Assembly (NCBI GenBank): GCA_965220935.1
Contig: OZ244857.1
Span: 1,672,929-1,736,928, forward strand
Origin: Rhodothermales bacterium
GTDB taxonomy: Bacteria; Bacteroidota; Rhodothermia; Rhodothermales; Bin80
DNA: 64,000 nt
Reading direction: 5' to 3'
Shown here: positions 7,123 to 40,735 of the stretch, in pieces
Layout of the letters: each line of letters opens with the position of its first letter
Position numbering within the stretch: position 1 is the first letter of the stretch
The notes under the pieces: model-generated
What the model saw: the letters and a program-made list of their open reading frames with translations, nothing else
Databases searched by the model: none
Told to the model about the DNA's origin: nothing
Program-made: the position numbers and the translations under genes

Positions 7123-8049
7123 CTATGATTCTGCCCAGGGAATCCATCCATCCCACTTATGACCAAAATCAAATTGTTCAGGATATAGACATTCAGCGAG
7201 AATTTCTGCCGACTCAACAACTCGGGGCCCAGGCCGATTAAAATACTGATTCCCATCGGTCACATAAATTCTGCCATTCTTCACAGCTGACAGGTTTTTC
7301 CATTCCAGATGTGAGGTCAGTGGCTCCATCTCACGAAGACATCGCTCTATACCAAACCCGCAGGGCATGATTGCAATAACGTCGGGTTGTTGCGATATGA
7401 GGTCGTCCATTGAATAGTATCCTGAATGCTTGCCAGACTCGCTAAATAGATTTTGGCCTCCAGCAAAATCTACAAGAGTCGGAACCCAGTTCGCTGCAAT
7501 CATCAATGGATCAGTCCATTCAATACAAGCGATCCTTGGCTTCCAGGCGATTTTTTGAGTCTGATGATGGATTGACCTTAGTCGATTTTGCAAATTGGCG
7601 GTTAATTCTACTCCCCTATCTGGAACACCTAGTGCACTTGCAACCAACTGGATGTCAACCCATATATCTTCAAGCGACATGGGTTCTAATGAGACAATAG
7701 CAGGCGCGGAGCTCACCAATCTGCTGACCGCTAGTTCAACATCCTTGAGACTCACAGCACAAACTTCGCACTGTGTTTGTGTGACGATGAGCGTTGGTGA
7801 CAGTTGATTCATCAGATCGGAATCAACCTTGTATACAGATAAGCCCTCGTTAACGATCCCACGAACCTGATCGTCTATTTCACCACTGGATAATTCAGTT
7901 TGTACCTTTGAAGAAGAGCATACGGGGATGTGTTTGATCGTAAGAGGATAGTCGCATTCATGTGATTTACCAACAAGATTCTTTTCAAATCCAAGAGCAC
8001 ATACAATTTCTGTAGCACTGGCAATGAGAGATATAATGCGATGATCCAT
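7123..8049 (-). CDS. BtuF/FhuD-like (cluster A/TroA-fold) cobalamin or iron-chelate binding protein without a signal peptide
   Basis: 308 aa. The N-terminus MDHRIISLIASATEIVCALGFEKNLVGKSHECDYP is typical of the periplasmic-binding-protein type 2 (BtuF-like) family. No hydrophobic leader is present, and no permease or ATPase genes are adjacent. Confidence 0.6.
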   Translation of the reverse strand: MDHRIISLIASATEIVCALGFEKNLVGKSHECDYPLTIKHIPVCSSSKVQTELSSGEIDDQVRGIVNEGLSVYKVDSDLMNQLSPTLIVTQTQCEVCAVSLKDVELAVSRLVSSAPAIVSLEPMSLEDIWVDIQLVASALGVPDRGVELTANLQNRLRSIHHQTQKIAWKPRIACIEWTDPLMIAANWVPTLVDFAGGQNLFSESGKHSGYYSMDDLISQQPDVIAIMPCGFGIERCLREMEPLTSHLEWKNLSAVKNGRIYVTDGNQYFNRPGPRVVESAEILAECLYPEQFDFGHKWDGWIPWAES

Positions 8050-8429
8050 TTAGTTCAAATCTACTAGATATTCTTGATCTGCTCATAATTAAATCATGTG
8101 CATATTTGACTGAATATAACGCTCGTCTAAGACCATGGACTTACGGTTTGTGTAATAAGAGAAAAGATTAAACCTGCGGAGCGGGTCTTCTGCTGATCGT
8201 TTTTCTCATTCACCTGAATTTACCCAAGATTCCGTTATTTTTGTGAATATATGGCAAAGTGCCTGAAAACGCATAAACATCATCTATTAGCAAGACGGCT
8301 TACTCAACGAAAAGAGCGATCTAAGACTGACGGATCTTATCTTAGTCCCATCGCATTCAATCAGGTGCTGAGGATTGACCTACCAGTACCGCTGGATAGT
8401 GTCCAATATGATGCTCACAGCCTTTCACT

Positions 8430-13215: not shown

Positions 13216-16044
13216 CTATGATTGGACCTCAAGTGTACGTTTCGTATGAACCATCTCAAAGGCTTCAATTTGATCTCCGACTTTGATATCATTATAATTC
13301 TCTACACCTATGCCACATTCATAGCCCGTTAAAACTTCGCGTACATCCTCTTTAAAGCGCCGTAAAGATGCCAGTCGTCCCTTGTAGATGACGATTCCCT
13401 CTCTTAACACATGAACTGTATCCGCTCGGCGGATACGACCTTCGGATATATAACAGCCTCCAACTGCACCAATTTTAGGTACTTTGAATATCTCTCGCAC
13501 CTCTGCGACTCCGATAATTTTTTCTGACTCTTCGGGAGTGAGCAATCCTTCAAGCGCATCTCTCACATCTTCAATTGCATCGTAAATGATTGAATAGGTT
13601 CGTATATCAATTTCTTCTCGCTCTGACGCTGATCTTGCACCAGCAGTGGGGCGTACCTGAAATCCAATGATCACAGCATCGGAAGCGGAAGCAAGCATCA
13701 CATCGCTTTCTGTAATGGCCCCTACCCCGGCATGAATAATGTTGACGGCCACCTCATCGGTGGAAATTTTATGAAGCGAATCACTGATGGCTTCTACTGA
13801 GCCACCAACATCCGCTTTGATAATGAGATTGAGTTCATTAAAGTCACCAAGTGCCATTCGGCGCCCAACATCTTCAAGTCGAACATGTTTGTACTGACGC
13901 ATCTTCTGCTCACGCCAAATCTGTTGACGTCGTTGAGCGACATCACGGGCTTCTGCTTCCTCATTCATGCCAGCAAGTTGATCTCCCACAGTAGGTTGGC
14001 CTGGAAGCCCCAGAACCAATGCTGGTTCGCTCGGACCGACTGATTTGATCTGATGATCACGTTCGTCAAACATCGCACGAACTCGTCCACCATAAATGCC
14101 AGCGACGAATGGATCCCCTACTCTGAGCGTTCCATTTTGAACAAGAACCGTTGCCACATTACCTCGTCCTCGATCCAGTCGACTCTCTATGACAATTCCT
14201 ATAGCGTGGCGTTTCGGATTCCCCTTTAACTCCATGAGATCTGCCTCAAGAAGTACTTTTTCTAGGAGGTCATCAATCCCCTCTCCTGTCTTGGCAGATA
14301 CGAATGCGCATTGAACCTTACCCCCATATTGCTCAACTAAGACTCCATGATCAGACAGTTCTTTCATGACCCGTTGGACATCTGCCTGCTCTAAGTCAAT
14401 CTTGTTGATTGCGATAATTAGCGGAACACCAGCAGCTTTGGAATGGTTGATCGCTTCAATGGTCTGAGGCATGACGGAATCATTGGCGGCTACAACCAAG
14501 ATGACTACATCTGTCACTTTGGCTCCACGGGCTCTCATCGCTGTAAACGCCTCATGTCCAGGTGTGTCAAGGAATGTGACCACCCGATGATCGTCAAGCG
14601 AAACCTTGTATGCGCCAATATGCTGAGTAATTCCTCCCGATTCTCCAGCAGCGACACTTGCGTTACGAACATAGTCAAGCAAAGAGGTTTTGCCATGATC
14701 CACATGTCCCATGACCGTCACTACTGGAGCACGAGGGATCAAATCTTCGGGGTGATCCTCGTCGATGTTAATATCCTCGTCGCCAAATTCTGTAATGAAT
14801 TCAATGGTATAATCAAACTCATCAGCAACGTAAGCGATGGTATCTGCATCAAGTCGTTGATTGATGGATACCATCATCCCAGAGCTAAATAACATACTGA
14901 TGACATCCGTAACGGGAATGCCCATCAAGTCCGCAAGCTCACCAGTGGCAATGAACTCGGTGACTCGTATGTGGCGATCTTTCTCTTCTTGTTCAACCTG
15001 GACATTAAGACGCTCCTCAGCACGTTGCTGTCGACGCGCTCGTCGACGTCGCTGGCGCACCCTAGCAGTCCCTTGGTCAAGACTCCGTAATGTCTCTTGA
15101 ACGGACTGACCAACCGCCTCGGAGTCTATCTTTGATTTTCGCTTTGACTTTCCACTAGTTTTCTTGTCTGGATCGGTAGACTTGCCATCGGATTGGTTTG
15201 TAGACTTCTGAGTAGATGAAGTTACTTTTTTACGCTTACGTTTTCGTTTACGCTTTCGCCTTCCTGCAGCCTCATCATCGGTCTCTACAGTTGCGAGATC
15301 AATTTTACCAATAATTTTTGTGCCCTGAAGTTGATACCTATCGGCAGAAATGATTGTATCTTCATCTGAAGATTCAAGTTTTTCAATTTGCGTATTTAGT
15401 TGATCATCGGAGGCTGGGAGCGATATATCCTGATCAATCTGCTTAGCTTCATCAGGTGCTATCTCACCTTGATTAGAGTCCGCCTGAGAATCAAGAGCTT
15501 CGTCAATCGCTGGATCTGCGGATTCAACCTCCTCCTGCTGAATATCTTCTTCCTCTGATTCCTCTTCAATTGGGTCAGTCGTAGCTTCATCAATCTGCCC
15601 TGAGACGGGCTCTTGTTCAATGGCTGATTCCTCTGTGATCAGGTCAGCCTCTTCCTTTTTGAGGGCTTCCAGTTCATCCGAGGGTTCGGACAGAATCGCA
15701 GTGTCATCGGTTTCTGATGGTTCCACTGATTGAATTTCTTCACTACTCTCCTCTAAATCAACATCATTAGTTTTTTGATATTCTTCGGCGCGCTGGGCTT
15801 CTCTAATTGAGCGGAGTTCTCGAATACGGGCATGATCCTTCACATCCTCAGCAAAATGTTCTAATAAATCAAGGTATGCATCTTCGGACGTGATTGCAGC
15901 CCGAATACCAGAACCAGATAATGCATCAGCATATCCATGTTCTTCTATATACTCGACAATTGTATCAGTTGTCCGATTTAATTCCCTTGATACTTTATGG
16001 AGGGGAATTTTTTTGAATTTCTTGGCTGAGTCAGTTGAAGGCAT
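13216..16044 (-). CDS. infB: Translation initiation factor IF-2
   Basis: 942 aa with G-domain motifs [20 protein letters not shown] and NKID. The N-terminal region has acidic and then KR-rich low complexity ([12 protein letters not shown]). Confidence 0.95.
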
Positions 16045-16083
16045 TACGGTATTTTTTCTGTTTATAGTGGGATGAGAATCTCA

Positions 16084-17358
16084 CTATAAATTGAATTCTT
16101 CCTCCAGTTCTTCGTCTTCCTCAAATTCTGACTTAATTGAATCCATAATTCGTTTAGCAACCTCAGGATTTAAATTGCTTCGACGAATCAGTTCATCTAC
16201 GGATAACTGGAGAACTGCCTTGGCGGAATCACATCCAATTTCTCGAAGCGTGTTGATGATTTCTTGACTGAATTCATCGGAGAATTCTCCAATTTCTACA
16301 TCTTCTTCATCTCCAGGGATTTCTCTGAAAATGTCCAATTCCACACCAGTCATTCGGGCCGCAAGTCTAATATTGATTCCAAGCTTTCCGATAGCTTGGC
16401 TGACCTCGTCGGCTTTAACAATAACCTTGGCTTTCGGAGGATCTAGTGCATCATTGATGGTCACCGAAACTGGAGTGGACGGTGAGAGTGCACGCTTAAT
16501 CAGCAGAATAGGGTCCTCGGTCCATTCCATGACATCAATATTTTCATTACTGAGTTCACGAACAACTGCATGGATACGATTCCCTTTGAGTCCTACGCAG
16601 GCTCCGACGGGATCTATTCGTTCGTCATGCGTAATGACAGCAACTTTCGCCCGATCTCCTGGCTCTCGCACGATGGATTTGATTTCCACAATCGCTTCAT
16701 CAATTTCGGGGACTTCTAATTCAAACAGGCGCTCCATCAGCTGGGGTGCAGAACGACTAATGATCACTTGAGGGTTACTACTTGCATCTCTACGCACCTC
16801 TTTGACTATAGCACGGATGATATCTCCTTTTCGATAACGATCTCTGGGGATTTGCTCCTCACGAGGCATGATGAGTTCTACTCTATTGTGAATCACTAAT
16901 ATTTCACGTCTTCGAATCTGATAGACTTCACCGACGACTAATTCACCAACGAGATCGGTATAATCTTTATAGATATTATCTTTTTCATGATCTCGGATTC
17001 GGTTATGAAACGTATAACGTGCCGTCTGAACCGCGCGTCTGCCAAAACCAGAGATTGAAATCTCTTCGGCGACTTCATCATCCACCTCATAATCATCTTC
17101 AATCTTGACCGCATCATTGAGCTCAATTTGCGTCACTGGATCAACAAGATCATAATCTTCAACGACCTCACGAATATGGAGAATCTGCATATCCCCGTGA
17201 TCAGGATTAAAAATAATTTCAAACGCCTCATCAGAGCCAAAGCGAGTTTTAATCATGGCCCGCATGACATCTTCAACGATGAGTTGGAGCGAATCCCGGT
17301 CAATACCTTTCTCCCGGGCAATTTCTGCAAATGACGAAACAAGATCACTATTATTCAT
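16084..17358 (-). CDS. nusA: Transcription termination/antitermination factor NusA
   Basis: 424 aa with an S1 domain (GELVVGEVYQIRRREILV) and KH domains (GACVGLKGNRIHAVVREL). Confidence 0.95.
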   Translation of the reverse strand: MNNSDLVSSFAEIAREKGIDRDSLQLIVEDVMRAMIKTRFGSDEAFEIIFNPDHGDMQILHIREVVEDYDLVDPVTQIELNDAVKIEDDYEVDDEVAEEISISGFGRRAVQTARYTFHNRIRDHEKDNIYKDYTDLVGELVVGEVYQIRRREILVIHNRVELIMPREEQIPRDRYRKGDIIRAIVKEVRRDASSNPQVIISRSAPQLMERLFELEVPEIDEAIVEIKSIVREPGDRAKVAVITHDERIDPVGACVGLKGNRIHAVVRELSNENIDVMEWTEDPILLIKRALSPSTPVSVTINDALDPPKAKVIVKADEVSQAIGKLGINIRLAARMTGVELDIFREIPGDEEDVEIGEFSDEFSQEIINTLREIGCDSAKAVLQLSVDELIRRSNLNPEVAKRIMDSIKSEFEEDEELEEEFNL

Positions 17359-19627: not shown

Positions 19628-20729
19628 TTATTGTAATAGATACGCTTTGATAAAGCTGTGAATATCCCCATCCATGATAGACTGGACATCAGGAATCTTG
19701 AGTTCTGTTCTGTGATCATTGACCATTGTATAGGGTTGGAAGACGTAAGATCGAATTTGACTTCCGAAGTCAATTTTTTTCTTTTGCGATTCACGTTTGT
19801 TTTTCTCCTCTTCTTGGATGGCCAACTCTAACCGATACACTCGGCTTTTAAGCATTGTCATTGCACGTTCTCGATTCTGAAGTTGGCTACGCTCTTCTGT
19901 ACATTCGGCAGCAACGCGAACCTGTTCACCGTTTGATAGTTCACCTTCCCAGATCAACCGCACCCCCGTGTCTAGCTTATTAACATTTTGGCCTCCTTTA
20001 CCTCCAGAGCGAAAGGTTTGGAGTTCAATGTCTGCTGAACGGAGATCAATTTCTATTGTGTCATCAATTTCTGGATAGACAAAAACGCTGGCGAATGATG
20101 TATGGCGGCGTGAATTTGAATCAAATGGGGAGATACGAACTAAGCGATGTACACCTGATTCTGCCTTGAGGTAACCATAGGCAAAGTCTCCCTGAATACT
20201 CAGGGATGCACTTTTAATTCCAGCAACTTCTCCCGCTTGATGCCCAAGAAGGTGTACATTGAATCCTTGTCGCTCCGCGTAGCGGGTATACATCCGCAAT
20301 AGCATTTCGGCCCAGTCTTGACTTTCGGTGCCTCCAGCCCCAGGATTAATGGTTAGAATTGCGTTGCGCTTATCATCTCCAGCGGAAAGCATACTCCGCA
20401 ACTCCAACGACTCAATGGATTTTAGCAATGCTTCGCAGGATTCAGCAATCTCTGCGTCAAGGTCTTCGGACTCTTCTTCGGAGAGTTCAATCAATACGGA
20501 TATATCTTCTGCATGCCCTTTGACTATGCTATAGTCGTCTATCCACGTATTTTCTGAGGCGATTGCGCGTTCATTCTCTTGAGCCGATTCTGCGTCATCC
20601 CAGTAATCGGGGGCAAGGCGTTTTTGGCTTAGTTCTTCAACTTTTTCAGATCGCTTATCAACGTCAAAGATAGCCTCCGAGCGCATGGGCACGCTCAATT
20701 AAGTTTTCGATATCTGGTCTGGATAACAT
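19628..20729 (-). CDS. prfB: Peptide chain release factor 2, requiring a programmed +1 frameshift at 20664..20669
   Basis: Frame 0 from the ATG at 20729 reads MLSRPDIENLIERAHALGGYL then TGA. The +1 frame continues DVDKRSEKVEELSQK... into the 356-aa ORF (SGGKGGQNVNK = GGQ motif, and SPF). The listed ORF start at 20698 is an artefact of the frameshift. Confidence 0.9.
20663..20678 (-). promoter_or_regulatory. prfB +1 ribosomal frameshift site (SD-like GGAGG followed by TAT CTT TGA C)
   Basis: The minus strand reads tcGGAGGcTATCTTTGACg, which matches the canonical RF2 autoregulatory site (E. coli: AGGGGG TAT CTT TGA C). Confidence 0.85.
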
Positions 20730-20879: not shown

Positions 20880-23516
20880 TTAACTGGAATCTAAAATTTC
20901 AAAAAATGCTTCCTTAAACTCCTCCTTATTATGCCCCATTTGATTGAAAAAGGGCAATCCGCGCACAATGTACTCTTCTACCTGAAACACTTCTTGAACT
21001 TTATCAGTCCATTGTATATTCGCCATAAAATCTTGTTTCCATAAATCATTGGATATGAGATGTTCTCCTTTGGGCTCAATAAATAACTGGAGAATATTTC
21101 CAACTTCTTCACCTTTTTTCCGAAGAAATAAGATAAAGTCAGGCTCAAATCCCTCCCCATTTTCAAAAGAGTAAAGTTTTACGGCCTTTTCATTTCTCAG
21201 AAGAAAAAAATCATCATATCGTTTTTTGAGGTTTTCGGCCTCGTAATACAAATACTCAATGAAGCGCTTTTCCTCGCTTGTTCCATAACTCGTATCATAA
21301 GCGTGCCAATCTTCATCAATTGGATTAATAAGGTTTAGGTTCGGTAAATTGCTCTCCTTCCAGCTAAGCCCTTTTTCACCTTGAATTTTAATTTTCAGTG
21401 TCTTATCAACAAAGCACTGGCTGATTTTCTTACGCGTGAACTCAGTTGTTCCGACGAATTCTGCCCTACGACGCTTCAAACTAATCTCAATTTGATTAAG
21501 GGCATATTGTACAATTTTAACACTCTGACGAGCAGTTATTCGTTCAAGATCTTCACGATTTCCTCGAACCTGAATATTCACATTTCTTAGGAATAATTCC
21601 GAAGTTTGAAACTCTAGTGTACTTCGGAGGTGTGGAAAATATCTTTGTAGGTTAACGAAGTGAAAAAAATCATTGGAGTCCATGGCAAAATCCAAAATAG
21701 ATCTGTCAAATTCTGATACATTCAAGTTTTTAGAAACCACTGTAGAATTATTGCCACATTGACTTCCCCCTTCGTCATTGTGATTAAAGGCTGATATTTC
21801 GGTGACTTGTCCTGTCATCAGAGTGTGTGGAAATACAAAGTTTGTTTCTATTTCGTAGGATCTCAATTGGCCAATACTTTCAGGTAAGAACTTGCTTCTC
21901 CGATCATTGACCCACACATAACCGATCTTATAAAACTGTGATTGCTTAAAACTGTCTTTCAGACGTAGATGTACTGTACGGCTTTTTTCATCATGCATTC
22001 CGATTTTTTTAAGTGCTCGCTTAAGCTCATCAATGTATCTTGGATTATGGGAGCAGTGATAATGTAGCTCCTCCAAAATTCTTAGATTGTGTTCTATATT
22101 TCTATCGTACTTACGCTTTTCTGGTGTGGCTTCTGGTAAATCGGGATCCATAAACGGGAAATATCTGGCACCCCGCCCTATGAGTTGCGCCTCTGACATA
22201 GTTGTTGCGCCAATCCTTTCGCCTCTACTATCTCTAGTATTATATAGGCGCACAATGTCAAATAAATTTAGAACGTCCCATCCCTCATCCAACTTATTGA
22301 CTGCAAAAATTACTCGAAGATCATTAGATTTGTCTTCCAGATTGTTTAAGTCTATCTGAAGATCCTCAAGATCTATAAGTCTGTTTACATTTGCGGTCTT
22401 CCCGTCTCCAAAATCCCCTTTTAACTCAAGTGCAAAATCATCAAATTCTATTCCGCATTCGTCAATGATATATTCAAAAGCTCCTGATAAGGTCATGTCG
22501 TTCACTGATGAATTACGAATTTGTCTAAGATTATCACCAGACAATCCATTGACCATGGATACAAATAAAGTCTCATTTTCGGCCGATTGGGCAATAGTTT
22601 TGGACTTCATTAGAATCACAGGCTTACAAAATATTCCATGTGCTTCTGCTACTTTTCGCCTGTATTGACTTAACACCATGGCTTGTAGCATTCGATCATG
22701 CGGAGTTAAATCGGCCTGCCTTAATTCAATATCTTTTGAATATCCATCCGCCCTAAAATGCTTTAATTGGTAATCATAAATGACCTTGTCGTAATACTTT
22801 ATCTTAATTTCACTGTGATTGAGATCAGCAGTAGCAGTAAACTCCAATAGAATATTTTTAGAGTGTTGATCAAAAATAGATGTGACGGTATTTTCCCAGC
22901 TTTTGAGCCCAGTAACCTCGGTAGATGTTAAATTGTTTCTTGTGTGTGCATTTAGATGGTGAGCCTCATCCGAGATCATAACTATTTGGTGTTCCTGAAA
23001 ATCTTCCATTGTTACAGCATCTTCTCTGGGATTGAGCATTCTTGTGTGTAACCCTTGAATTGTAGTAAAATGAATATTGATCGTTTGAAGATTCGCTGCC
23101 TCAAAGGTATCAACTGCTTGAACTTCCACTTGCTTACCATCAATGCGTATGTTCTGACTGAATAAATATTTCAGCGATTGTGAGTTAAGAAAATTATCTC
23201 TGGTTTTTTCAATTATCTGATTTGAGTTTACAAAAAACAGGAAATTCCTATAGCCCCGACGATAAAGATCAAGTATTAAAGCAGCCATCAATACTGTTTT
23301 ACCGCTTCCTGTTGCCATGTGAAACAGCAAATGAGGTCTTGGTGATCTGTGGTTATACTTATCAATGTAGTAAAACCACCGTTCAATTGCTTCAACTTGA
23401 TAAGGACGAAGATTAATTCTTTGGGCAAGATTGTCAGTGATATTGGATGGTAAGTCTTTTTTTAAGATATCCTGCTCTGACAATGTGTCAAATGTTTCAA
23501 GAAGACTCCGTTTCAT
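20880..23516 (-). CDS. res: Type III restriction enzyme Res subunit (SF2 helicase + PD-(D/E)xK nuclease)
   Basis: 878 aa with motif I FHMATGSGKT, motif II MISDEAHHL and motif VI QLIGRGARY. The C-terminal nuclease-like segment is GFEPDFILF...LQLFIEPKGEHL. The start overlaps the upstream mod stop (ATGA at 23513..23516). Confidence 0.85.
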   Translation of the reverse strand: MKRSLLETFDTLSEQDILKKDLPSNITDNLAQRINLRPYQVEAIERWFYYIDKYNHRSPRPHLLFHMATGSGKTVLMAALILDLYRRGYRNFLFFVNSNQIIEKTRDNFLNSQSLKYLFSQNIRIDGKQVEVQAVDTFEAANLQTINIHFTTIQGLHTRMLNPREDAVTMEDFQEHQIVMISDEAHHLNAHTRNNLTSTEVTGLKSWENTVTSIFDQHSKNILLEFTATADLNHSEIKIKYYDKVIYDYQLKHFRADGYSKDIELRQADLTPHDRMLQAMVLSQYRRKVAEAHGIFCKPVILMKSKTIAQSAENETLFVSMVNGLSGDNLRQIRNSSVNDMTLSGAFEYIIDECGIEFDDFALELKGDFGDGKTANVNRLIDLEDLQIDLNNLEDKSNDLRVIFAVNKLDEGWDVLNLFDIVRLYNTRDSRGERIGATTMSEAQLIGRGARYFPFMDPDLPEATPEKRKYDRNIEHNLRILEELHYHCSHNPRYIDELKRALKKIGMHDEKSRTVHLRLKDSFKQSQFYKIGYVWVNDRRSKFLPESIGQLRSYEIETNFVFPHTLMTGQVTEISAFNHNDEGGSQCGNNSTVVSKNLNVSEFDRSILDFAMDSNDFFHFVNLQRYFPHLRSTLEFQTSELFLRNVNIQVRGNREDLERITARQSVKIVQYALNQIEISLKRRRAEFVGTTEFTRKKISQCFVDKTLKIKIQGEKGLSWKESNLPNLNLINPIDEDWHAYDTSYGTSEEKRFIEYLYYEAENLKKRYDDFFLLRNEKAVKLYSFENGEGFEPDFILFLRKKGEEVGNILQLFIEPKGEHLISNDLWKQDFMANIQWTDKVQEVFQVEEYIVRGLPFFNQMGHNKEEFKEAFFEILDSS

Positions 23517-24782
23517 AGATCTATTTTGTAGAATTTTCTGGTAATTTCTACATTTTCATCAGAGATTGAAAACCACTCATCGCCGAGTGAATGGATGTTA
23601 ACATATAAATGATTGGCATCCATACAATCTTTCAGCGCTCGCTTCGCATCATCCATGGAAAGATTCGTAAATTTTTCTGATGCAAAAGATTTCATATTGA
23701 CATCATAGCGAAGAAAACCAGTCTTTTGTATTTCGTTTTTGATGCAAAGTAGAGTTTTGAAGTCAGTAGCTGCGTCAATTTTCTCCATAAATTGTGAGTT
23801 AGAGTCTGCAAGTTGAGCATAAATAAATGAACCACCTCCTGCCCAGTCAACTACCTTAGAAACTCCACCCTGTTCGCCTTCAATGACCTTTTTTAGGCGG
23901 ATCTTGATTAAGTCATCAACATAGTTCATCTGTTCAATTGCAATCCATTGACGCCCCATCTTGTGAGCAACTGCTGGCGTGGTGCCTGACCCTGCAAAGA
24001 AATCCATCACAATATCATTCGGATTTGTTGATGCGCGGATGATTAGTTCTGCAAAGGCTTCTGGCTTTGGATAGGCAAAATCCACTTTCCCAAATATCTT
24101 ATTTCGTTCTTTGGTTGCTTTCTGATTCATGTATTGATTATCTGCACCTTCAAGGCTTCCAAGTAAATTATATTCGCTTTTGATTTCACTTAAATAGCGC
24201 TTAAAAATAAAGCCTCTCTGATTTTCAGAATGCTTTTTTCTAAATTTGATTTTTCCAGATTTAATGTAATCTCGAAGTCTCCCTCCCGAAAATAGCCACT
24301 GGCGATTTTCGGGAGGGAGATCAACTTTCCCTGTATATGGGTTCTTAATTGGAAAATAATAATCACCCGACCGAGCACTTGGATTATCACTTGCCCATGG
24401 TCCATTGGGATCATTGTCGGGGTTCTTGTAATTCTCAAATGTCTTTTTTTTACCAACTAATTCAATCTTGGACTTATCCTTTGCATAGATGAGTGTATTT
24501 TCGTGCTGAATATTAAATCCAGTTCTCGCATCATTAGTTGTTGACTTTGTCTTCCTTATTAAATCTCCCACGAAGTTCTCTCTTCTGAATATCTCATCCA
24601 TCAACACTTTGAGATAGGCCTGTTCATTATCGTCAATATGGATAACTATCAACCCATCATCTGTAAGAAACTGTTTGGCCACTTCAAGTCGATTACGCAT
24701 GAACGTGAGCCACGAACTGTGATTGAATCTGTCATTATATCTGAACCCATCATTCCCCGTATTGTAAGGGGGATCAATGTAA

Positions 24783-25391
24783 ATCAATTTCACTTTCCCC
24801 GCATAGCGAGTTTTCAGTGAATGGAGAGCTAAGAGATTATTACCCTTAATCAGCAAATTGTCATCTTCACGCACCTCACCTACTGCACTGGAAAATGCCC
24901 CCCCCCCCCCCCCATTTTTTCTGGATTGACACTCCAGCGCTCCCATCCTGTCAACACCTTTGGCTCAAACAATCTTGTAATGTCATCTGGAGACAACACA
25001 GTGTTCCAGAATATCTCTTTTCTCCCCCGATCTTCCTTTGTCATACCACCCTCCAAAACACAGTCCTTGTAAGGCCATGTAAGGACTACATCGCGTGACT
25101 GACTTAAATGATTCCCTCGCCCATCTACCAGACCAATACGATTTTTGAATGCCGTGTAACTGTTTGGGAGAAAGGTCTTGTTTGACACAAAACTTTGGAA
25201 TTTCACCTTGTCAAAAACCAGGGTTTTACCAACTTTGACAAAAAAGTGTGATTTGATTTTTTCGGATTGAAGTAGCAGTTCAAGAAGCCTTTTATCCAAA
25301 CGCAAGGCCGCTTCAATGACAACATTTCGGAGAATCTCTCCATCAGAAATATACTCAGACTCAGACTCTAATAACTTGATTAAATCGTTAA
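24783..25391. repeat. Direct repeat copy A: 5' module of mod copy 1 (609 nt including C16)
   Basis: By-eye alignment to 26830..27433 shows no differences apart from homopolymer length. The encoded N-terminal ~175 aa are identical in the two ORF translations. Confidence 0.85.
24898..24913. repeat. C16 homopolymer (G16 on the mod coding strand)
   Basis: Counted directly: ...gaaaatg ccc / cccccccccc / ccc atttttt. Tracts of G11, G14 or G17 would be in frame; G16 is not. Confidence 0.95.
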
Positions 25392-25562
25392 AGAGATTTT
25401 GCATGTTTGATGCTTATGACCGTGATTGTTCGGTTTGAAAGTTTATAAATTGATAGATCAATTAATGTTACCGTTAAATAGTATTCCAAATAAGACATAC
25501 GGGAGATCATCTCAAAGTCAAACCCTCAAAACCAGAAATATACGAACTTCTAAGTATAATCA

Positions 25563-27488
25563 TTACGAAATGCCGTAAAATTTACGAGTCAATTCTGCAT
25601 CTTCTTTGGAAATTGTATGCACTTCATCGCCGAGCGAGTTGAGGTTTACATATAGATTATTGGTATCCAAGCAATCCATCAACAAACGCTTTGCATCATC
25701 CAGAGGAATATTGAAGAAATCATTATCATCAAATGGTTCCAAGTTAACATCATATCTGAGAAAACCTGTTGCTTGAATTTGATTCTTTATCGCATAGAGT
25801 TTTGAAATATCAGTAGCGATAGAAATTTGATCTACAAAAACCGAATTTGAATCCGCAAGCTCTGCATAAATAAATGATCCACCTCCAGTCCATCCGATAG
25901 TTTTTGATATTCCACCTTGCTCACCTTCAATCACCCTCTTCATTCGTTCAATCGTAGTATTTTGGATATAATCCATTTGTTCAATTCCAATGAATCTCCG
26001 TTTCATTTTATGTGCGGTGCTAATAGTGGTACCGCTTCCTAAATGATAATCTAGCACAATATCTCCTTCATCGGTTGACAGTTGTATAATTCTTTCCATT
26101 AACCCCTCTGGTTTAGGATTAGCAAATACTTTTTGCCCAAATAACTGTTTAAGGTGTTGTGTGCCATTTGTAGTTGTTTGTAAATCTCTCCACAAGGTAG
26201 TTGTAACTTCCCCTCGTGATTTCGCTTCAGACCAAAATCTTTTTCTCTGAGGACCGGCTTCGCCAGAAATACCAAATACAATCCGACCATCAGCGAGTAA
26301 TTCATCAAAAACTTTTTTTTCATTTTTCCAACTATTTCCTTTATTGGGCTTATATACCACTCCTGTATGTGGATTAGTAATTTCATATAACTGATTAGGT
26401 CTTTTTCCCCCAACCTGGAAGGGATCTGCCACCCATTTGCCTCTTGCATCATTATCTGGATTTGAAAATTTACTTTCATCACTGGGGAGTCTAAACTGAG
26501 TTCTATTTTTCTTCAACTGTTTTATATCCTTTGAGTACAATAACAAATGAGTATGTGCATTGGAAATTAAAGCTGTATTGGTCACTGACTTTGTGGAATT
26601 CCATATGACATCAGCTACAAAATTATCTCTTCCAAAAATTTCATCCATCAATATTTTACAATAGTGCGCCTCTTCATCAGACAGTGAAATCCAGAATAAA
26701 CCATCCTTAGATAATAATTCTCTTGCCGCTTCCAAACGATTTCGCATAAACGTCAGCCATGTTGAATGCCTGAATCGGTCGTTATACTGGAAACCGTCAT
26801 TTCCTGTATTGTAAGGGGGGTCAATAAAGATCAATTTCACTTTCCCCGCATAGCGAGTTTTCAGTGAATGGAGAGCTAAGAGATTATTACCCTTAATCAG
26901 CAAATTGTCATCTTCACGCACCTCACCTACTGCACTGGAAAATGCCCCCCCCCCCATTTTTTCTGGATTGACACTCCAGCGCTCCCATCCTGTCAACACC
27001 TTTGGCTCAAACAATCTTGTAATGTCATCTGGAGACAACACAGTGTTCCAGAATATCTCTTTTCTCCCCCGATCTTCCTTTGTCATACCACCCTCCAAAA
27101 CACAGTCCTTGTAAGGCCATGTAAGGACTACATCGCGTGACTGACTTAAATGATTCCCTCGCCCATCTACCAGACCAATACGATTTTTGAATGCCGTGTA
27201 ACTGTTTGGGAGAAAGGTCTTGTTTGACACAAAACTTTGGAATTTCACCTTGTCAAAAACCAGGGTTTTACCAACTTTGACAAAAAAGTGTGATTTGATT
27301 TTTTCGGATTGAAGTAGCAGTTCAAGAAGCCTTTTATCCAAACGCAAGGCCGCTTCAATGACAACATTTCGGAGAATCTCTCCATCAGAAATATACTCAG
27401 ACTCAGACTCTAATAACTTGATTAAATCGTTAAGGATATTTTGTTGATTTCCTGAATAATCCTGATTTCTGTTCATGATTGATGCCAT
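25563..27488 (-). CDS. mod: Type III DNA methyltransferase Mod (copy 2, intact, N6-adenine beta-class order IV-TRD-I)
   Basis: 641 aa with IFIDPPYNTGNDGF (motif IV), a central region divergent from copy 1 (candidate target-recognition domain), and VLDYHLGSGTT (motif I). The poly-G tract encodes GGG in frame. Confidence 0.9.
   Translation of the reverse strand: MASIMNRNQDYSGNQQNILNDLIKLLESESEYISDGEILRNVVIEAALRLDKRLLELLLQSEKIKSHFFVKVGKTLVFDKVKFQSFVSNKTFLPNSYTAFKNRIGLVDGRGNHLSQSRDVVLTWPYKDCVLEGGMTKEDRGRKEIFWNTVLSPDDITRLFEPKVLTGWERWSVNPEKMGGGAFSSAVGEVREDDNLLIKGNNLLALHSLKTRYAGKVKLIFIDPPYNTGNDGFQYNDRFRHSTWLTFMRNRLEAARELLSKDGLFWISLSDEEAHYCKILMDEIFGRDNFVADVIWNSTKSVTNTALISNAHTHLLLYSKDIKQLKKNRTQFRLPSDESKFSNPDNDARGKWVADPFQVGGKRPNQLYEITNPHTGVVYKPNKGNSWKNEKKVFDELLADGRIVFGISGEAGPQRKRFWSEAKSRGEVTTTLWRDLQTTTNGTQHLKQLFGQKVFANPKPEGLMERIIQLSTDEGDIVLDYHLGSGTTISTAHKMKRRFIGIEQMDYIQNTTIERMKRVIEGEQGGISKTIGWTGGGSFIYAELADSNSVFVDQISIATDISKLYAIKNQIQATGFLRYDVNLEPFDDNDFFNIPLDDAKRLLMDCLDTNNLYVNLNSLGDEVHTISKEDAELTRKFYGIS
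26830..27433. repeat. Direct repeat copy B: 5' module of mod copy 2 (604 nt including C11)
   Basis: See 24783..25391. The copies are offset by about 2.04 kb in the same orientation. Confidence 0.85.
26945..26955. repeat. C11 homopolymer (G11 on the mod coding strand), in frame
   Basis: Counted directly: aatg cccccc / ccccc atttt. Confidence 0.95.
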
Positions 27489-27618
27489 TCTAACTTACAA
27501 TTGATCTGTTATTAATGTATCGGGGCCGGTCACCTTTTATTGGCACACAGTACGGTCCCATTCTATTTTCAACTAATATACTCAGATATCATGTTGCAAG
27601 ACCATGCTGAGGCAAAAT

Positions 27619-28848
27619 CTATTCATGGGGGGACGGTTTGGCCCAGATGGTTAAAACCAACTCCTCACCATATAAATTATACACGGGGGTTTGACCTGAA
27701 TGACTTTTGCATATGCTTAATATAGTCCTAACTCCCTCACCACGAGATTCAAGGATCACTTTACCAGTAGATGAGGCTTTTATTCGTGATAAAAAATTGA
27801 CCAATAGCTGATTTCTAGTGAATACGCGATACGCCATTAGCTCAATGGTAATTGCATTGGGTAAGTCACCAGGGCTATAAATCTCAATCCGGTCTGAAAA
27901 TAAAAACATCCGAATCTTAGATCCACGGATTGAGTAATCTCTGTGCGCCACAGCATTGACGATTGCCTCACGAATTGCGCGGAGGTCATACTGAGGATAC
28001 TCAATTCGTCCAGCAGGCTTACGAGCAGGTTTCAGCATAAATCGATCTACAAACTTAATCGCACTCTCAATCTGAGTATCCACAGTGCTCTCAATACGCT
28101 CACTATGGACTAAGTCATCCGAAGTAAATTGAATACTTTTATACACGGCTGCTTCAATATATGCGTTCTGCATGTAGTTCTGAGGTGACGTACCGAATAT
28201 CAAAAGTCCTGTAACAGTTGTGCGAAATAAATCATCATCAATTCTTGAAATTACTTTGGTGTTTCTTAGTAAATCAACCCATGAAAGAGTCTTGGAGTGC
28301 CCTCCAAAATAAGATTCTAATTTACTTTGATCAAGATCATCTATTGTGGTACCTGGAACTAATTGTTCATCAAAAATAAATGTGCGCTCCCTTTCTTGGT
28401 ATAGCCGGGGAAGCATAGGCCCTTTGAGCAATTGTTTAGTTGATCCAACGCGCACATAATGACGACCACTGCTGGTAATATGAACATATAATCCTTTTGG
28501 AATTTTGACTAATAAAATTGTAGCATTTTCACCGTTCGGCATGGGAAGATACTCCCACTGGAGTGAGGGATTTAATGGCGGATCGCAGCTATTTGTAGCT
28601 ACATTGATGATCCAGTGCTCAATATCCTTGAGACGATCTTTCGGAAACCCTCTAACAATTCCATCGTCATCTACCCCTAGGAAGATCGTACCTCCGTTAG
28701 AATTGGCAAAAGCAACCATTTCCGAAGCAATTGCATCCTCGTTTGGTGATCGCACGCCATGCTTTGCCATAACTACTTGTTTAAATTCAGAGTGAGAACC
28801 CTCTCCAAGAGATAACTGCTTAAAAATTTGATTTGTTGTGTAGTGCAT
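27619..28848 (-). CDS. AlbA_2 (Schlafen-like) DNA-binding domain + HATPase_c_4-like ATP-binding protein (COG2865-type putative regulator)
   Basis: 409 aa. The N-terminal SEFKQ...EMVAFANSNGGTIFLGVDDDGIVRGF is the AlbA_2 signature. The C-terminal IREAIVNAVAHRDYSIRGSKIRMFLFSDRIEIYSPGDLP...TRNQLL is the RecG-C-terminal-like HATPase_c_4 signature. Confidence 0.7.
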   Translation of the reverse strand: MHYTTNQIFKQLSLGEGSHSEFKQVVMAKHGVRSPNEDAIASEMVAFANSNGGTIFLGVDDDGIVRGFPKDRLKDIEHWIINVATNSCDPPLNPSLQWEYLPMPNGENATILLVKIPKGLYVHITSSGRHYVRVGSTKQLLKGPMLPRLYQERERTFIFDEQLVPGTTIDDLDQSKLESYFGGHSKTLSWVDLLRNTKVISRIDDDLFRTTVTGLLIFGTSPQNYMQNAYIEAAVYKSIQFTSDDLVHSERIESTVDTQIESAIKFVDRFMLKPARKPAGRIEYPQYDLRAIREAIVNAVAHRDYSIRGSKIRMFLFSDRIEIYSPGDLPNAITIELMAYRVFTRNQLLVNFLSRIKASSTGKVILESRGEGVRTILSICKSHSGQTPVYNLYGEELVLTIWAKPSPHE

Positions 28849-28854
28849 AGTTTT

Positions 28855-31839
28855 CTAAAATCCGTATCGTTTCCTCCGAAGACGAAATGCTTCTTCGCTA
28901 CCTTCTATGATGGCTGCAACAAGTTCCTTTATTTGTGATTTGTCAATACTTCCTGCACCCATCACTTTCCCTACTTTATTATCTGAACCCAATGCAACGA
29001 TGAGTTCAGCATCTCCATTCACTGGAACATTAGCATTATGGGTGGCAATTAGAATTTGGCGCTTGAATTTTTGTTGACGTAGAAGATCAACGATGATGTT
29101 GTAAACATATTGATTGTCAAGATCATCTTCTGGCTGGTCAATGAATATGGGTTGATTTCGTGCCGAAAGTAAAAGACTGATGATGGCCGTGTTCTTCTCA
29201 CCTACCGATCCAGTTTCAATTGTCTTAAACGTTCCATCCTTCGCGCGAACCTGCGCATGAACTAAATCCTCTGGCAAATAAGACTCCATTTCGTCTATTC
29301 TTGCATGGTCAAATTTTAGCAGTGCATTGAAAAAATATTTGGTGAGTGCTGTCTCCCCAACAAGAGACGCAACCTGTGAATCATCTGCAACTGTAGATTT
29401 GCCTTTATCTTTTGATGAGTTGATGTCTGTTCTAAGTGCTTGAAGAAGTGTTCTTAGGTTATATGGCACTTCGCTATCAGCAGAGAAGACATAATCACAT
29501 AAGACAAGCCAGTCACATTCTTGAAGTCCAGTGCCCCCAAACCATTAATCTCGTCTATTTTCAAAATCATTCCGATCACGAAAAGCATGAATCTGGATGC
29601 GAACATCTGCATCAATATCTTCAAGAGCATGAGCAATTTTCATACGGGCATTGTATCGATCGTGATGAATCAGTTGCAGTTCAATCTGAACATTCTTAAT
29701 TTTTTCTTCCACCTGGTTTAATTCGTCTTCAATATTTTTGATTGAACCCTTTTCATGTTCTAATCTTGCACGTTCTTGAAGGAGTTTTTCGTGATTAATT
29801 AAGTGTCCCTCTATATTCTCCGTTTCTTTAATTAGAGCATTGTATTCTAATTTGATTTCGTCGTAGTTCGGTTTCCAGTTTTCTAATTGCTCTGAACGAA
29901 TTTTTTCACTCAGTATCTTAATGGCCTTGACCTGATCATTAAGTGCTAGAAGTATCTTATCTCGGGTACTACGAATCTGATCTGTAATTGATTGTGACCA
30001 GAGTTCCTTCGGGGATGATTCAAGCTTTTCTTCACCTAAGTCCTCAACAGGTTCAATTGAACTCAATAAAATATTACTAACATTATTTATCTCTCTTAAT
30101 TGATCATCTATCCACCTACGTTCTTGCTCCACTTCATTGAAACGAGTAAATACCTGCTTATGCTTCTCTTTTTCAAAGAATGCAATCTTGTCTTGAACTT
30201 TCTGTAACGCAGTTAACACCGCGGGTGCGTTATTTTTTGATTCAACCAAACTGGTACGTAATGATTGACATTTACGAAGTGCAGAGGTAAGCCTTTTTTT
30301 ATCCTCATTGAAGTTGCGACGAGCACTGCTGTCCATTAATGAGTCAATCTCTCTACGCTGGGACACTGGATCATGGGCAATCTCAGCAATCTGTCGCTGA
30401 GATAAAATTCGAGGTGCAATCAAAGTTCGAACATCTAATGGAACTGATTCAGAATTATCTTTGTCTGAATGAAGTGTAGTGTTAATTCTATTTGAACATC
30501 TGATGACGCGATATATCCTTCCAGCTATTACAATTTCTACAATGATTTGATAGTCAGTAATCAGAGTTCCTCTGCTTTGACCAAAATCTTGTTGACTCTT
30601 CATTGAGAGAATAGATCGGATAGAATCATATACATGGCTATTCCTGTCCGATAGGTCAGCATCCCGATCACGGTCTAATACATGCCGTAAATACTCAATT
30701 ACGGTAGATTTTCCACTCCCACGCCCACCTATAGTGTTGTGAGGCAGGGACTAAGTGGAATTGTAATTTCTTCAAAGAAGTCTGTATTACGGATTATAAT
30801 TTGTTTAATGTATGGATAATCTGACCTTGGGGGGCCATGATCCATGCGGCGAAGACGTGACTCTGGATCAAGTAGAGCTATAGAATTCCTTCAACATCAG
30901 GAACCTCCATTTTAAGCCACGAAAATCGCGAGCCGATACACTCGTATTTCCTCGGATCTGAGCACTCAATTAAAGACCAATGTTTCTGATTCCGATAGCG
31001 TTGTTGTTCATCAGTCGAGAGATTCTTCCAATCATATCCTCGACGGGCCACATCCCATTGAAGTAGTAAATCTTGAAACCCCTCTGGCAATTCAAAGAAT
31101 GATTTGGATGTCTGAAACCCATCCCAATCCTTTCGTGCGATTGCATATTGTCTCAAATGGCCTTTCATTTGATCAATTATATCTCCAGTATTCTTAGAAC
31201 GTAGACCCGTTTCTTTAGCGACTCCCCGGTTGCTATCGGCATGAGCAGGAAGTAGAACTAATTGCATGTCACGTTCACCCGATTCTGGACGACAGTACTC
31301 AAACAAGCGGTCTATAAATGTGCTAATTGATTCGCCATTTGTCAACGGAATACCGGTTTGAGGATGGAAGCGTTCTTTATTTCCAAACATATGCCGGATT
31401 GTACTATTGATATTCTCAGTAGACGTTTCTGATGAGAATATCACTAAAAAATGAATAGGACGCTCCCCACCAATACTAAATTCAACCCTGGAAGAATCAC
31501 GGGTATATGAAACCCTTGATTTAGTAATTTCTCAGATAGTTGATCAAAATGAGGTTTTAGATAACTATACCCGTCAATACTATTATGATCGGTGATGGCT
31601 ACGAGGTCTAATCCTTTCCCATTTGCTCCGTTTTGACAGGCATTTATGAATTTTGACGCGATCTTGTATAGATCCTGTGACTTACTTTTCTTAAAATTTT
31701 CAATCGCCAGTTTCGTATTTTCACCAAATTTTTTCTCATGATCAAATGGAGTATGCACATGTAAGTCACAACGGAGCCATTGGGCGCCTTGACCAATATT
31801 ATTTTTAGGTTCCGATGTTGACATTCCAATAAAATTCAC
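28855..31839 (-). pseudogene. Decayed gene for a ~990-aa PHP-domain + SMC/RecF-like ABC ATPase (candidate single-protein defence ATPase)
   Basis: Pieces identified: PHP N-terminus WLRCDLHVHTPFDHE...LVAITDHNSIDGY...VILPG|VEFSIGGERPIHFLVIF; LLDPESRLR...; Walker A IGGRGSGKSTVIEYL (read by hand at ~30690..30735); a coiled-coil segment 29545..30603; and a C-terminal Walker B/H-loop PIFIDQPEDDLD...ILIATHNANVP. Lesions: frameshifts near 31485..31492, 30880..30890 and 30740..30760, plus an in-frame TAA at 29545..29547. Confidence 0.75.
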
Positions 31840-31884
31840 GGAGCTGCTAATGATAATCTACACAATGTAAATCAGATCCCCCAT

Positions 31885-32132
31885 TTATAAGCGAGTAAAT
31901 GTATAGAAAAATTTGAAAGTGCTTTCGCCTTTTCTTTGAACCGCTCTACGAACAAAATCAATTGCCTGAGGTATATCCAATTTCTCAAAGAATTCTAGCC
32001 AGTTTACAGTAGGTATTCTTCTTTGATCCTTAACCTAAATGCACTTGATATAGGTAGTCAATCTTTCCCAATAGATGATGGCTTGCAGTAGCGAGAGACG
32101 TGATGTTCGTCTTCAATCTTCAGATTAGACAT
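31885..32132 (-). pseudogene. Small decayed gene (~82 codons), translationally coupled to the upstream 113-aa gene
   Basis: Hand translation gives MSNLKIEDEHHVSRYCKPSSIGKD*LPISSAFRLRIKEEYL (in-frame TGA at 32058..32060). After a frameshift near 32000..32015 it continues ..TVNWLEFFEKLDIPQAIDFVRRAVQRKGESTFKFFYTFTRL*. The ATG overlaps the upstream stop (TAATG at 32130..32134). Confidence 0.45.
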
Positions 32133-39065: not shown

Positions 39066-40448
39066 GGGCCTCCCATTTTTTAAGTGGGTGATATTTTCAG
39101 AAATGGGTAAACGAGGGTAACAAGAATAAGGTTCGGTAAGGATTTTTATAGTAGTTTAGATTTGTTTATCTATCCTTCAACTTATCAAAAAAAGATGGCT
39201 TTAAAAATAACGGATGTGAATCATTTGATTGGTATTGCGTCACCGTGTCCGAGATTGAGCAGGAGACGAGTCGTTATGCGGCGAGGATCCATGTAGCGCT
39301 TTCGGGGGATGCGGAGTTAAGGTGTCCGGAGTGTGGGAAGGCGTGTCCGGGGTATGATCACCGAGAGCGACGCTGGCGCCATACTAATATCTGTGATTAT
39401 CGTACGGAGGTCGTCGCGAAGGTGCCCCGTGTGCAGTGTCCACAGCATGGTATGAGTACGATTTCGGTTCCTTGGGCCGATGCTCGTGTGCAATTCACGT
39501 CCAGTTTTGAGGCCTGTGTGATGGATTGGTTGCATGATGCAACCAGCATTTCAGTGATCGCGAAACGCTTAGGGGTGAGTTGGACGATGATCGCTCATAT
39601 TATGGATCGTGGAATCAAGCGTGGATTGGAGCGCAAGCCAGAGAAGATCGTGCCTCATATTTGCGTAGATGAGACAGCGTCCAAGAAGGGGCACAACTAT
39701 GTGACGATTGTATCGGATCCTGCAACGGGTACGGTGTTACATGTGTCAGAGGGGCGAACAATAGAGAGTTTATTAGAGTACTACGATAGTTGTTCACCTG
39801 AGCAAATTGCAGGGATTGAAAGTGTGAGTATGGATATGTGGCCTGCCTACATCACTGCAACAAGGATGCGTATACCCGATGCCGATTGCATTTGACCATT
39901 TTCATATCTCTAAATATGTTGGAACTGGGGTGGATGAGGTTCGCAGAGAGGAGAATCGTGCGTTAAAGAAACTGGGGATTCTGGATTTGGTAGGGACAAA
40001 GTATGATTGGCTTAAGAATCGGGCCAGCATGTCGGCCAAGCAAAAGAAGCGGTTTAACCTCTTGAAAAACAGTGCACTGAAAACAGCACGCGCTTGGGCG
40101 ATGAAAGAAGTGTTCCAGACGCTGTGGAAGTATAAACATCGCACTTGGGCGCTCAAAGCATGGAACCGTTGGTTAGGGTGGCTCTCACGCAGTCGTCTGG
40201 AGCCGATGAAAAAAGTGGCTAAAACCATTAGAAGTCATCTTTGGAGCATGATCAATGCGGTGGTTTTAGATGTGAGTAATGGGCCGGCTGAAAGCATCAA
40301 TAGTCGCATCAAAATGATCAAAATCCGTGCGCGTGGATTCAGAAATCCTGAACGATTAAAGAATGCAATTTACTTCTATCTTGGTGGACTTGATTTGTAT
40401 CCAGAAGGCACCAAAAATCGGCCAACCCACTCTTAAAACGGGAGGCCC
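39066..40448 (+). mobile_element. ISL3-family insertion sequence, copy 1 (degenerate)
   Basis: Imperfect terminal IRs are gggcctcccattttttaagtgggt (left) and the reverse complement of acccactcttaaaacgggaggccc (right). It is about 98-99% identical to copy 2. The flanks ttattaat and gatttaat are not a clean 8-bp duplication. Confidence 0.85.
39195..40436 (+). pseudogene. ISL3-family transposase in three pieces
   Basis: zf-ISL3 CPECGKAC...; DDE_Tnp_ISL3 (CVDETASKKGHNYVTIVSD, MDMWPAYI, FDHFHISKY). Relative to copy 2, a 7-nt net deletion at ~39246 shifts the N-terminus. The shared frame break is at 39879..39895 (RIPDADCI* / MPIAFDHFH). Confidence 0.85.
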
Positions 40449-40735
40449 GATTTAATTAGCTCATTAAACTGAATACCCCTATCAGGTGGGTCACTGATTT
40501 TGAGCATTTGCTCAGGGCAGTCATGCACAGAGGTACCTTGAGGCTTGAATGTTGGATGTTTTCTTGAACGAATGCTTTTTACACTGACATACCTTTGTTG
40601 ATAAACACTTTCGTCAAGAAATGCGTGCTGTCCGAAGAAAATTTGACCGATTGAACGACAGTAATCAACAAAACACTTTGATCCTTTAAGCTGCTGTATG
40701 ATCTGAAACGATTTGCCATGTTTACCGTGTTTCAT
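40433..40735 (-). pseudogene. Remnant ORF whose 3' end runs into the ISL3 right end (possible PD-(D/E)xK-like fragment)
   Basis: The last ~5 codons and the stop lie inside the IS terminal repeat. The frame is open upstream to ~40845 without an ATG (..GRALIISSEGSHRNWIIYIEMKHGKHGKS..). No secure family assignment. Confidence 0.25.

Follow-up and report, generated by a model that had tools for sequence, protein, structure and literature searches.

A restriction-modification (R-M) locus of Type III with two mod paralogs, which have different target recognition domains (TRDs), and a single res is present in a stretch of 64,000 nucleotides (nt) from a Rhodothermales bacterium (assembly GCA_965220935.1, contig OZ244857.1, positions 1,672,929 to 1,736,928). 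This whole stretch is referred to here as the window. The 5' ends of the two mod genes are identical over a block of 0.6 kb, which contains a poly-G tract in each gene. It is probable that the locus is an operon in which this 5' block has recently been homogenised by gene conversion, and in which both mods are under the same slippage switch.

Results

The genes and repeats of the locus are as follows (window coordinates; aa, amino acids).

20880..23516, minus strand: res, the single Type III restriction subunit gene (878 aa; PF04851 ResIII / SF2 helicase)
23513..25404, minus strand: mod1, the res-adjacent Type III methyltransferase gene (PF12564 and PF01555; type B TRD; G16, out of frame)
24880..25404 and 23513..24946, minus strand: the two open reading frames (ORFs) into which mod1 is split in the window
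25405..25562, minus strand: spacer between mod2 and mod1 (158 nt, unique sequence)
25563..27488, minus strand: mod2, the upstream Type III methyltransferase gene (641 aa; PF12564 and PF01555; type A TRD; G11, in frame)
24783..25391, minus strand: copy of the 5' module in mod1 (609 nt)
26830..27433, minus strand: copy of the 5' module in mod2 (604 nt)
24898..24913, minus strand: poly-G tract of mod1 (C16 on the plus strand, that is G16; out of frame)
26945..26955, minus strand: poly-G tract of mod2 (C11 on the plus strand, that is G11; in frame)

The initial annotation had claimed that the two mods share an identical direct-repeat module of 0.6 kb which differs only in tract length, and this was confirmed by global alignment, exact extension and a repeat search. 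Every base of 24783..25391 equals its counterpart in 26830..27433 by global alignment and exact extension, except for the length of the homopolymer (16 versus 11). The two copies are direct repeats about 2.04 kb apart, and the repeat search reports the same pair as two families (D1 and D2). The module was correctly described as spanning the N-terminal part, the tract and a stretch beyond it, but the gene layout had to be corrected, as the genes are on the minus strand. Beyond the tract the module has 39 further codons. The block starts 13 nt past the mod1 ATG, which is codon 5 of mod1 and codon 19 of mod2, and it ends about 10 nt short of the codons for DPPY (motif IV). Apart from the Gly run and those further codons, it contains the N-terminal domain as far as the Met that precedes the tract (residue 164 of mod1, 178 of mod2). 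Almost the whole N-terminal PF12564 domain falls inside it. The sequences upstream of the block are unrelated between the two genes, and mod2 has 14 extra N-terminal codons.

Just past the block the nucleotide identity of mod1 and mod2 drops to about 80% and then to 42–65%, depending on the segment. It is 64% in the first methyltransferase (MTase) half, 42% in the TRD, 55% in the second MTase half and 65% in the C-terminal domain (CTD); the amino acid identity in the same segments is 67%, 28%, 54% and 61%, respectively. When the variable sites were shuffled 20,000 times in a permutation test, identical runs were at most 46 nt (all sites) or 61 nt (non-TRD sites) long, as compared to the 604 aligned nt that were observed. 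Strong purifying selection on the shared domain, acting without any recombination, could be proposed as the cause of the identity, as the family shows strong conservation of the N-terminal domain, with many invariant positions. Selection on the protein cannot explain it, because the synonymous sites are identical too. Among codons for the same amino acid, 196/198 are identical in nucleotides in the module, against 33/66 in the CTD and only 67–73% in paralog pairs that have not been homogenised. Moreover, the same domain differs by 18–22% in nucleotides between the paralogs of three other loci (L001, L004 and L037; loci of relatives are given L numbers). The comparison of synonymous sites thus rules out this explanation, and its probability is practically nil. 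It had also been claimed that sharp boundaries of identity indicate recent gene conversion. The length of the block, the synonymous identity and the grouping of 5' modules by genome but of cores by TRD type (see below) speak for that claim, and a recent recombinational homogenisation of the 5' block is strongly supported by these comparisons.

With the N-terminal domain as query, one genome per species was scanned, which yielded 80 loci; the genome of the window itself lies outside the species representatives of GTDB. The nearest species-level loci are from a "Bacteroidetes bacterium" metagenome-assembled genome (MAG; L005) and several Rhodothermales MAGs. The closest relatives of Mod2 (70–73% aa identity) also sit in mod-mod-res loci. 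The gene order res-prfB-nadB-rimP-nusA is common to the window and L004, L005, L025, L026 and L089, and since this synteny holds at 72–82% nucleotide identity between the window and its nearest syntenic relatives, these loci are orthologous sites. Protein and codon alignments gave five core/TRD types.

Core type A: window mod2, L001_dn, L004_dn, L003_up
Core type B: window mod1, L001_up, L004_up, L026_dn, L037_dn, L033, L036
Core type C: L003_dn
Core type D: L026_up, L037_up, L005
Core type E: L025, L047

One chromosomal site thus carries either a single mod (B, D or E) or a pair, which is A-B in the window, B-A in L001 and L004 and D-B in L026 and L037. In their cores the window genes are nearest to genes of their own type elsewhere, at 71–79% nucleotide identity. 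For type A (71–75%) the neighbours of mod2 are L001_dn, L004_dn and L003_up, and for type B (74–79%) the neighbours of mod1 are L026_dn, L037_dn, L001_up, L004_up, L033 and L036. In the 5' module, mod1 and mod2 of the window match one another best, at 99%, and no other gene compared comes closer than 77%. The 5' modules likewise group by genome in L026, L003 and, more weakly, L037. A 5' module that goes with the genome and a core that goes with the type are the classical signature of gene conversion. L001 and L004 have the same A and B cores, but their 5' ends are only 78–82% identical (BLAST), and the homogeneous state in the window is therefore the derived one. Which of the two copies was the donor did not show in a comparison by segment with the A- and B-type genes of six related loci, to which the window module is 66–77% identical with no preference. 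An exact 42-mer of the module had 0 matches in JGI metagenomes, and the best relatives of the N-terminal domain among 5.8 billion proteins are only 80–81% identical.

Near-identical blocks were also found in other mod pairs.

L026: 5' block, 96.1% over 739 nt
L003 (Paracoccaceae MAG): 5' block, 99.8% over 490 nt
L035 (Arenicellales MAG, convergent mods): 5' block, 99.9% over 1,049 nt, inverted repeat
L004: 3'-end block, 96.4% over 752 nt, running into a res remnant of roughly 250 nt

Every 5' block in these pairs includes the poly-G tract. The tract lies at codon about 20 in L003, at about 92 in L035 and at about 165–180 in the Rhodothermales clade and the window. Its position, inside the homogenised block, is in every case common to the two paralogs of one genome, so the switch and its flanks travel together between paralogs. 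The arrangement itself is rare in the family and is not a family-wide rule: tandem mods were found in 4/80 species-level loci, to which one inverted pair is added, and metagenome loci gave 1 mod pair among about 24 with enough flank.

In the inverted pair, L035, the mods (7692..8740 and 15306..16353) are convergent around one res and have tracts of G10 and G9 at codon about 92. The free-standing mod is in frame and the res-linked mod is out of frame. Recombination between the inverted repeats would flip the intervening segment of 7.6 kb. In L004 (7655..7905) and L001 (about 7670..7900), about 250 nt after the upstream mod match the 5' end of res, and the stretch of L004 shares 96% identity with the beginning of the res of that locus. 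Because a res 5' remnant follows the upstream mod, the B-A-res pair of L001 and L004 was evidently built by a mod-res unit which was inserted into, or recombined with, a resident mod-res.

A different route to the state observed in the window would be a recent tandem duplication of one mod bearing a simple sequence repeat (SSR), after which the core/TRD and the 3' part of one copy were replaced by horizontally acquired DNA, the identical block then being a remainder of the duplication. Core/TRD types do move among loci, as seen from the A-B, B-A and D-B pairs and the single B, D or E mods at one site. The res remnant in L001 and L004 points to insertion of whole mod-res units at the site, and TRD acquisition or movement through conserved flanks is documented (PMC5909438, PMC3467074). 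However, the 3' parts of the window mods (MT_C and CTD) are as diverged as the rest (55–65% in nucleotides), so that the replacement would need to reach from motif IV as far as the stop codon. On the 5' side the identity begins only within the ORF, and the start regions are unrelated. In addition, homogenised blocks elsewhere vary in their place, being 5' in L026, L003 and L035 and 3' in L004, and repeated short conversion fits this better. Duplication followed by replacement is thus considered rather improbable, and we infer that the block more likely arose by conversion.

Both mods are in frame only when the tract length is 2 mod 3 (8, 11, 14, 17), and they then encode full-length proteins of 629–641 aa. 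In the window mod2 (G11) is ON and mod1 (G16) is OFF; with G14 or G17 mod1 gives an uninterrupted protein of 629/630 aa. Apart from the tract, both mod reading frames are open over 630–641 codons and all motifs are present, which argues against gene decay. A second version of the contig is available as a public record (ena:ERZ25072152:ctg52284_11x_l, 1,797,819 bp, coverage about 11x). It equals the window over 7,359 nt except for three gap positions, all of which are in the two mod tracts. The public record has G13 in mod2 (out of frame) and G17 in mod1 (in frame), and its gene calls are the reverse of the window, as mod2 is split into 183 + 452 aa and mod1 is intact with 630 aa. The previously described length difference of the modules, 609 versus 604 nt, is therefore right for the window but changes with the version of the assembly. 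The remaining two long tracts of the window (C11 at 6679..6689 and C12 at 51863..51874, coding strand) are equal in both versions. The difference between the versions is what heterogeneity of the population at the mod tracts would produce, and the tract variation may be biological.

The contig was assembled from a metagenome with a coverage of about 11x, and the two public versions disagree at both homopolymers, which indicates imperfect consensus calling at the locus. The identical block itself could in principle be an artefact of assembly or polishing, either as a collapsed or misjoined repeat or by cross-polishing of similar 5' ends. Against this, both copies sit in unique reading frames that are open throughout and have different flanks, and elsewhere in the 7.4 kb the two versions agree fully. 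A mod-mod-res arrangement with a B-type res-adjacent gene was found independently in L026 and L037, tandem pairs are present in L001, L003 and L004, and independent assemblies (L003, L026 and L035) show the same kind of near-identical block. An artefact of this kind is very improbable.

The same junction is repetitive in relatives with one mod. The single-mod loci L005, L025, L033, L036, L089, L090 and L091 have G9–G11 at the same junction after the N-terminal domain, and most of them are split there in their assemblies. Since single-mod relatives at the same site share the tract, the putative poly-G switch is a feature of the whole clade of Rhodothermales-like bacteria and not a peculiarity of the window. 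A switch of the shufflon or inversion type was ruled out, as the repeats are direct and no inverted repeats of at least 30 nt were found in window positions 22000..32000. Such a switch usually comes with a site-specific recombinase; the neighbours of the locus are Schlafen/AlbA_2, TrlF-like fragments and prfB.

Earlier it had been proposed that there are two Type III mod paralogs with a single res. This is borne out by PF12564 (TypeIII_RM_meth) and PF01555 (N6_N4_Mtase) in both Mods (PF01555, E = 6e-47 and 6e-49) and by PF04851 ResIII in Res (E = 3.5e-32). Both Mods have the beta-class order of motifs, with DPPY (aa 211 in Mod1, aa 223 in Mod2) before the FxGxG-type motif I, which is FFAGSGTT at aa 469 in Mod1 and YHLGSGTT at aa 481 in Mod2. 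The best PDB matches of Mod2, both by sequence and by AlphaFold/Foldseek fold, are all Type III Mods (Helicobacter pylori 6k0w, EcoP15I 4zcf and Mbo45V 7dsu). The motif I of Mod2 (window 26044..26067, aa 481–488) departs from FFxGSGTT, the consensus of the family. YH is likewise present in L003's type A gene (DYHVGSGTT), and the type A genes of L001 and L004 have FF. The two Mods presumably methylate different short asymmetric motifs, as their TRDs are unrelated (types A and B).

The stop codon of mod1 overlaps the ATG of res (ATGA at 23513..23516). The spacer between mod2 and mod1 (25405..25562) contains neither a res remnant nor a terminator-like hairpin, and co-transcription of mod2, mod1 and res is possible because such a hairpin is absent from it. 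A sigma-70 promoter scan gave fewer matches than shuffled sequences, the sigma-70 model being ill-suited to this phylum.

The shared N-terminal region (PF12564) is 160–180 aa long. One suggestion was that it is a Res-docking module. In EcoP15I, which is the only solved holoenzyme, the CTD (aa 539–644) and the MTase domain of one Mod contact Res (PMC4490356). The docking role is therefore not supported. The alternative suggestion of dimerisation is plausible by position only, as the N-terminal domain of EcoP15I (aa 14–60) intertwines with its partner in the Mod dimer (PMC4490356), and no detectable match to that domain was found. Alignments of Mod2 to solved Mods start at aa 187–190, corresponding to EcoP15I aa 88–90, and a profile of the N-terminal 164–177 aa found no solved structure in PDB (best E = 0.5). 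The AlphaFold model of Mod2 has a predicted local distance difference test (pLDDT) score of 80. It is confident for aa 14–92, a helical bundle and a hairpin which cover PF12564. The score is below 50 for aa 93–154, a stretch that is among the most conserved in the family, so that half of the N-terminal region is modelled at this level. It may be that aa 93–154 become ordered only in a complex. The Gly run encoded by the tract (aa 179–181 in Mod2) is in a predicted loop between strands 165–173 and 182–185, and this would explain how in-frame changes of tract length are tolerated. The OFF state still encodes the entire N-terminal domain (174–183 aa), and many ORFs of about 174–183 aa with PF12564 only exist on long contigs.

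Other features of the window are listed below.

19628..20698: prfB, downstream flank of the R-M locus
27619..28848: gene with Schlafen AlbA_2 and HATPase_c_4, directly upstream of mod2
28855..29469 and 29545..30603: two TrlF/Ppl-like ATPase fragments, adjacent ORFs beside the Schlafen gene

The matches of the latter two ORFs are confined to the C-terminal and middle parts of anti-phage ATPases of the TrlF/Ppl type, and the pair is apparently a broken defence gene. The R-M locus apparently sits in a small defence island which is absent from syntenic relatives. Elsewhere in the window, both of the long C tracts mentioned above are at the 5' ends of giant ORFs with fibronectin-III repeats, on their coding minus strand. 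The C11 tract (6679..6689) lies 27 nt upstream of the start that was called for ORF 1184..6652 (1,822 aa, 15 fn3 stretches), and the C12 tract (51863..51874) is about 30 codons into ORF 47441..51964 (1,507 aa; fn3, Calx-beta and He_PIG). From their position these tracts look like slippage switches on eukaryote-like surface proteins. An ISL3-family transposase, split in two ORFs, is present in two copies (52092..53340 and 39066..40453) that are about 98% identical over 1.4 kb, and one copy adjoins the second of the giant fn3 genes.

Discussion

Our data indicate that the two mods of this locus have been made alike in one part only. The following course of events is proposed. Non-reciprocal homologous recombination (intrachromosomal gene conversion) between paralogs 2 kb apart would have homogenised the block of 0.6 kb, and mod1 and mod2 would have retained their own start regions, cores and C-terminal domains. 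As a consequence, one and the same frameshift switch sits at the same codon of both mods, and their N-terminal domains are identical. Slippage of the polymerase should then turn each Mod ON or OFF through its own tract, independently of the other, so that four states of methylation and restriction are possible. Independent slippage switching of the two specificities is likely from the arrangement of tracts and frames. It is also presumed that both Mods are usable with the one Res. The direct repeat is a plausible substrate for deletion or duplication, and L033 and L036, relatives at the same site with a single B-type mod, have what would be the predicted product of a deletion.

Several points weigh against this account. 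Had the whole gene recently been duplicated and the core and 3' part then been replaced, the result would look the same. Because the window module stands at nearly the same distance from every relative, the comparison gives no direction for the conversion. The tract differences between the two versions could be consensus errors of long reads at homopolymers, since the discordant tracts are also the longest (13–17 nt against 11–12 nt) and the coverage is low, at about 11x. The activity of Mod2 is not certain in view of its non-canonical motif I. Mod2 is also without translational coupling to res, and its CTD is only 61% identical in amino acids to that of Mod1; binding of Mod2 to Res is thus a presumption.

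A more far-reaching idea is that the 5' block is a portable switch cassette, and that conversion puts the tract and the N-terminal domain onto any mod paralog which lands beside a resident one. Each new specificity would in this way gain its own stochastic ON/OFF control, and the identical N-terminal (putative dimerisation) domain would allow mixed Mod dimers and a shared Res. The two versions of the contig (A-ON/B-OFF and A-OFF/B-ON) would be snapshots of a population that alternates between two specificities, and the free N-terminal domain of 174–183 aa made in the OFF state could modulate the paralog that is ON. Taken as a whole this idea is doubtful, though conceivable.

Mycoplasma pulmonis also has a multi-mod Type III locus. 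Three mods with one res are found in Mycoplasma bovis PG45 (Mbo45ORF167P; PMC5909438; bioRxiv 10.64898/2026.05.01.722158), and two mods with a res in Mycoplasma agalactiae 5632 (MAGa1570/1580; PMC9465063). For the three mods of M. bovis, duplication followed by TRD acquisition has been proposed by Atack et al. 2018 (PMC5909438). The window locus resembles the Mycoplasma loci in its co-located mods, each with a variable TRD at its centre and with the SSR at the same position as in the other copies (PMC5909438, PMC9465063, bioRxiv 10.64898/2026.05.01.722158). The conserved 5' part, the single res that overlaps the last mod and the frequent out-of-frame copies are also common to them. The repeat is poly-G in the window but (GA/AG)n in Mycoplasma, the host is an uncultured Rhodothermales-like bacterium, and the window Mods have the PF12564 N-terminal region of 160–180 aa. 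The 3' parts are weakly conserved in the window (55–65% in nucleotides, CTD 61% in amino acids), whereas they are conserved in M. bovis. The 5' block of the window is 100% identical, whereas the Mycoplasma paralogs are reported to be about 65–70% identical overall. In comparison with the Mycoplasma systems the window locus is known from sequence alone. Thus, the design with several mods and one res is already known, and the window locus differs in the phylum, the type of repeat, the N-terminal architecture and the sharpness of the block.

The mods of the window are also similar to those of phasevarions (modA, modB, modD, modH, modM, modP/Q and modS; PMC5909438, PMC10123105) in having an SSR in the ORF, an ON/OFF switch (putative in the window) that works by frameshift, a 5' part that is conserved and a variable TRD, by which the methylation motif is set. 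The TRD variants of phasevarions occur as alleles of different strains, whereas in the window one genome has two variants next to each other, with the same switch module in front of each. As Res appears intact at the window locus, a function in defence is at least as likely as a regulon role. In H. pylori, TRDs are exchanged between non-orthologous Type III mods through conserved flanks, as shown by Furuta & Kobayashi 2012 (PMC3467074). Homologous recombination at conserved flanks and a TRD phylogeny that disagrees with that of the remaining gene are common to both cases. In H. pylori, however, it is the TRD that moves between distant loci, and in the window it is a non-TRD 5' module with the tract that is copied between adjacent paralogs.

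With EcoP15I and EcoP1I (Mod2Res1) the locus has in common the beta-class N6-methyladenine (m6A) order of motifs, the TRD between the motif groups, the CTD, the overlap of mod with res and a Res of the SF2 helicase type. In EcoP15I there is a single mod, which lacks a repeat tract and whose N-terminal domain has 47 aa (aa 14–60), whereas the window Mods have about 100 extra N-terminal residues without a solved homologue. Like the Type I hsdS shufflons (e.g. SpnD39III), the locus has several specificity modules for one restriction subunit and, presumably, a stochastic choice of specificity. The shufflons use inversion at inverted repeats, often with a recombinase, whereas the window has direct repeats and probable slippage.

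The ON/OFF calls for such genes in long-read MAGs vary with the assembly version, which is a practical warning for their annotation. The present analysis extends the design of "several switchable mods, one res" from Mycoplasma to free-living or symbiotic Rhodothermales-like bacteria. It gives clean sequence evidence on how multi-mod loci stay coherent: the switch part is repeatedly homogenised, as seen in four independent lineages and at three independent tract positions, and the specificity cores are exchanged among lineages. If the differences in tract length are biological, the locus would be a switch of both restriction and methylation between two specificities, and this would bear on phage defence and on the methylomes of uncultured bacteria.

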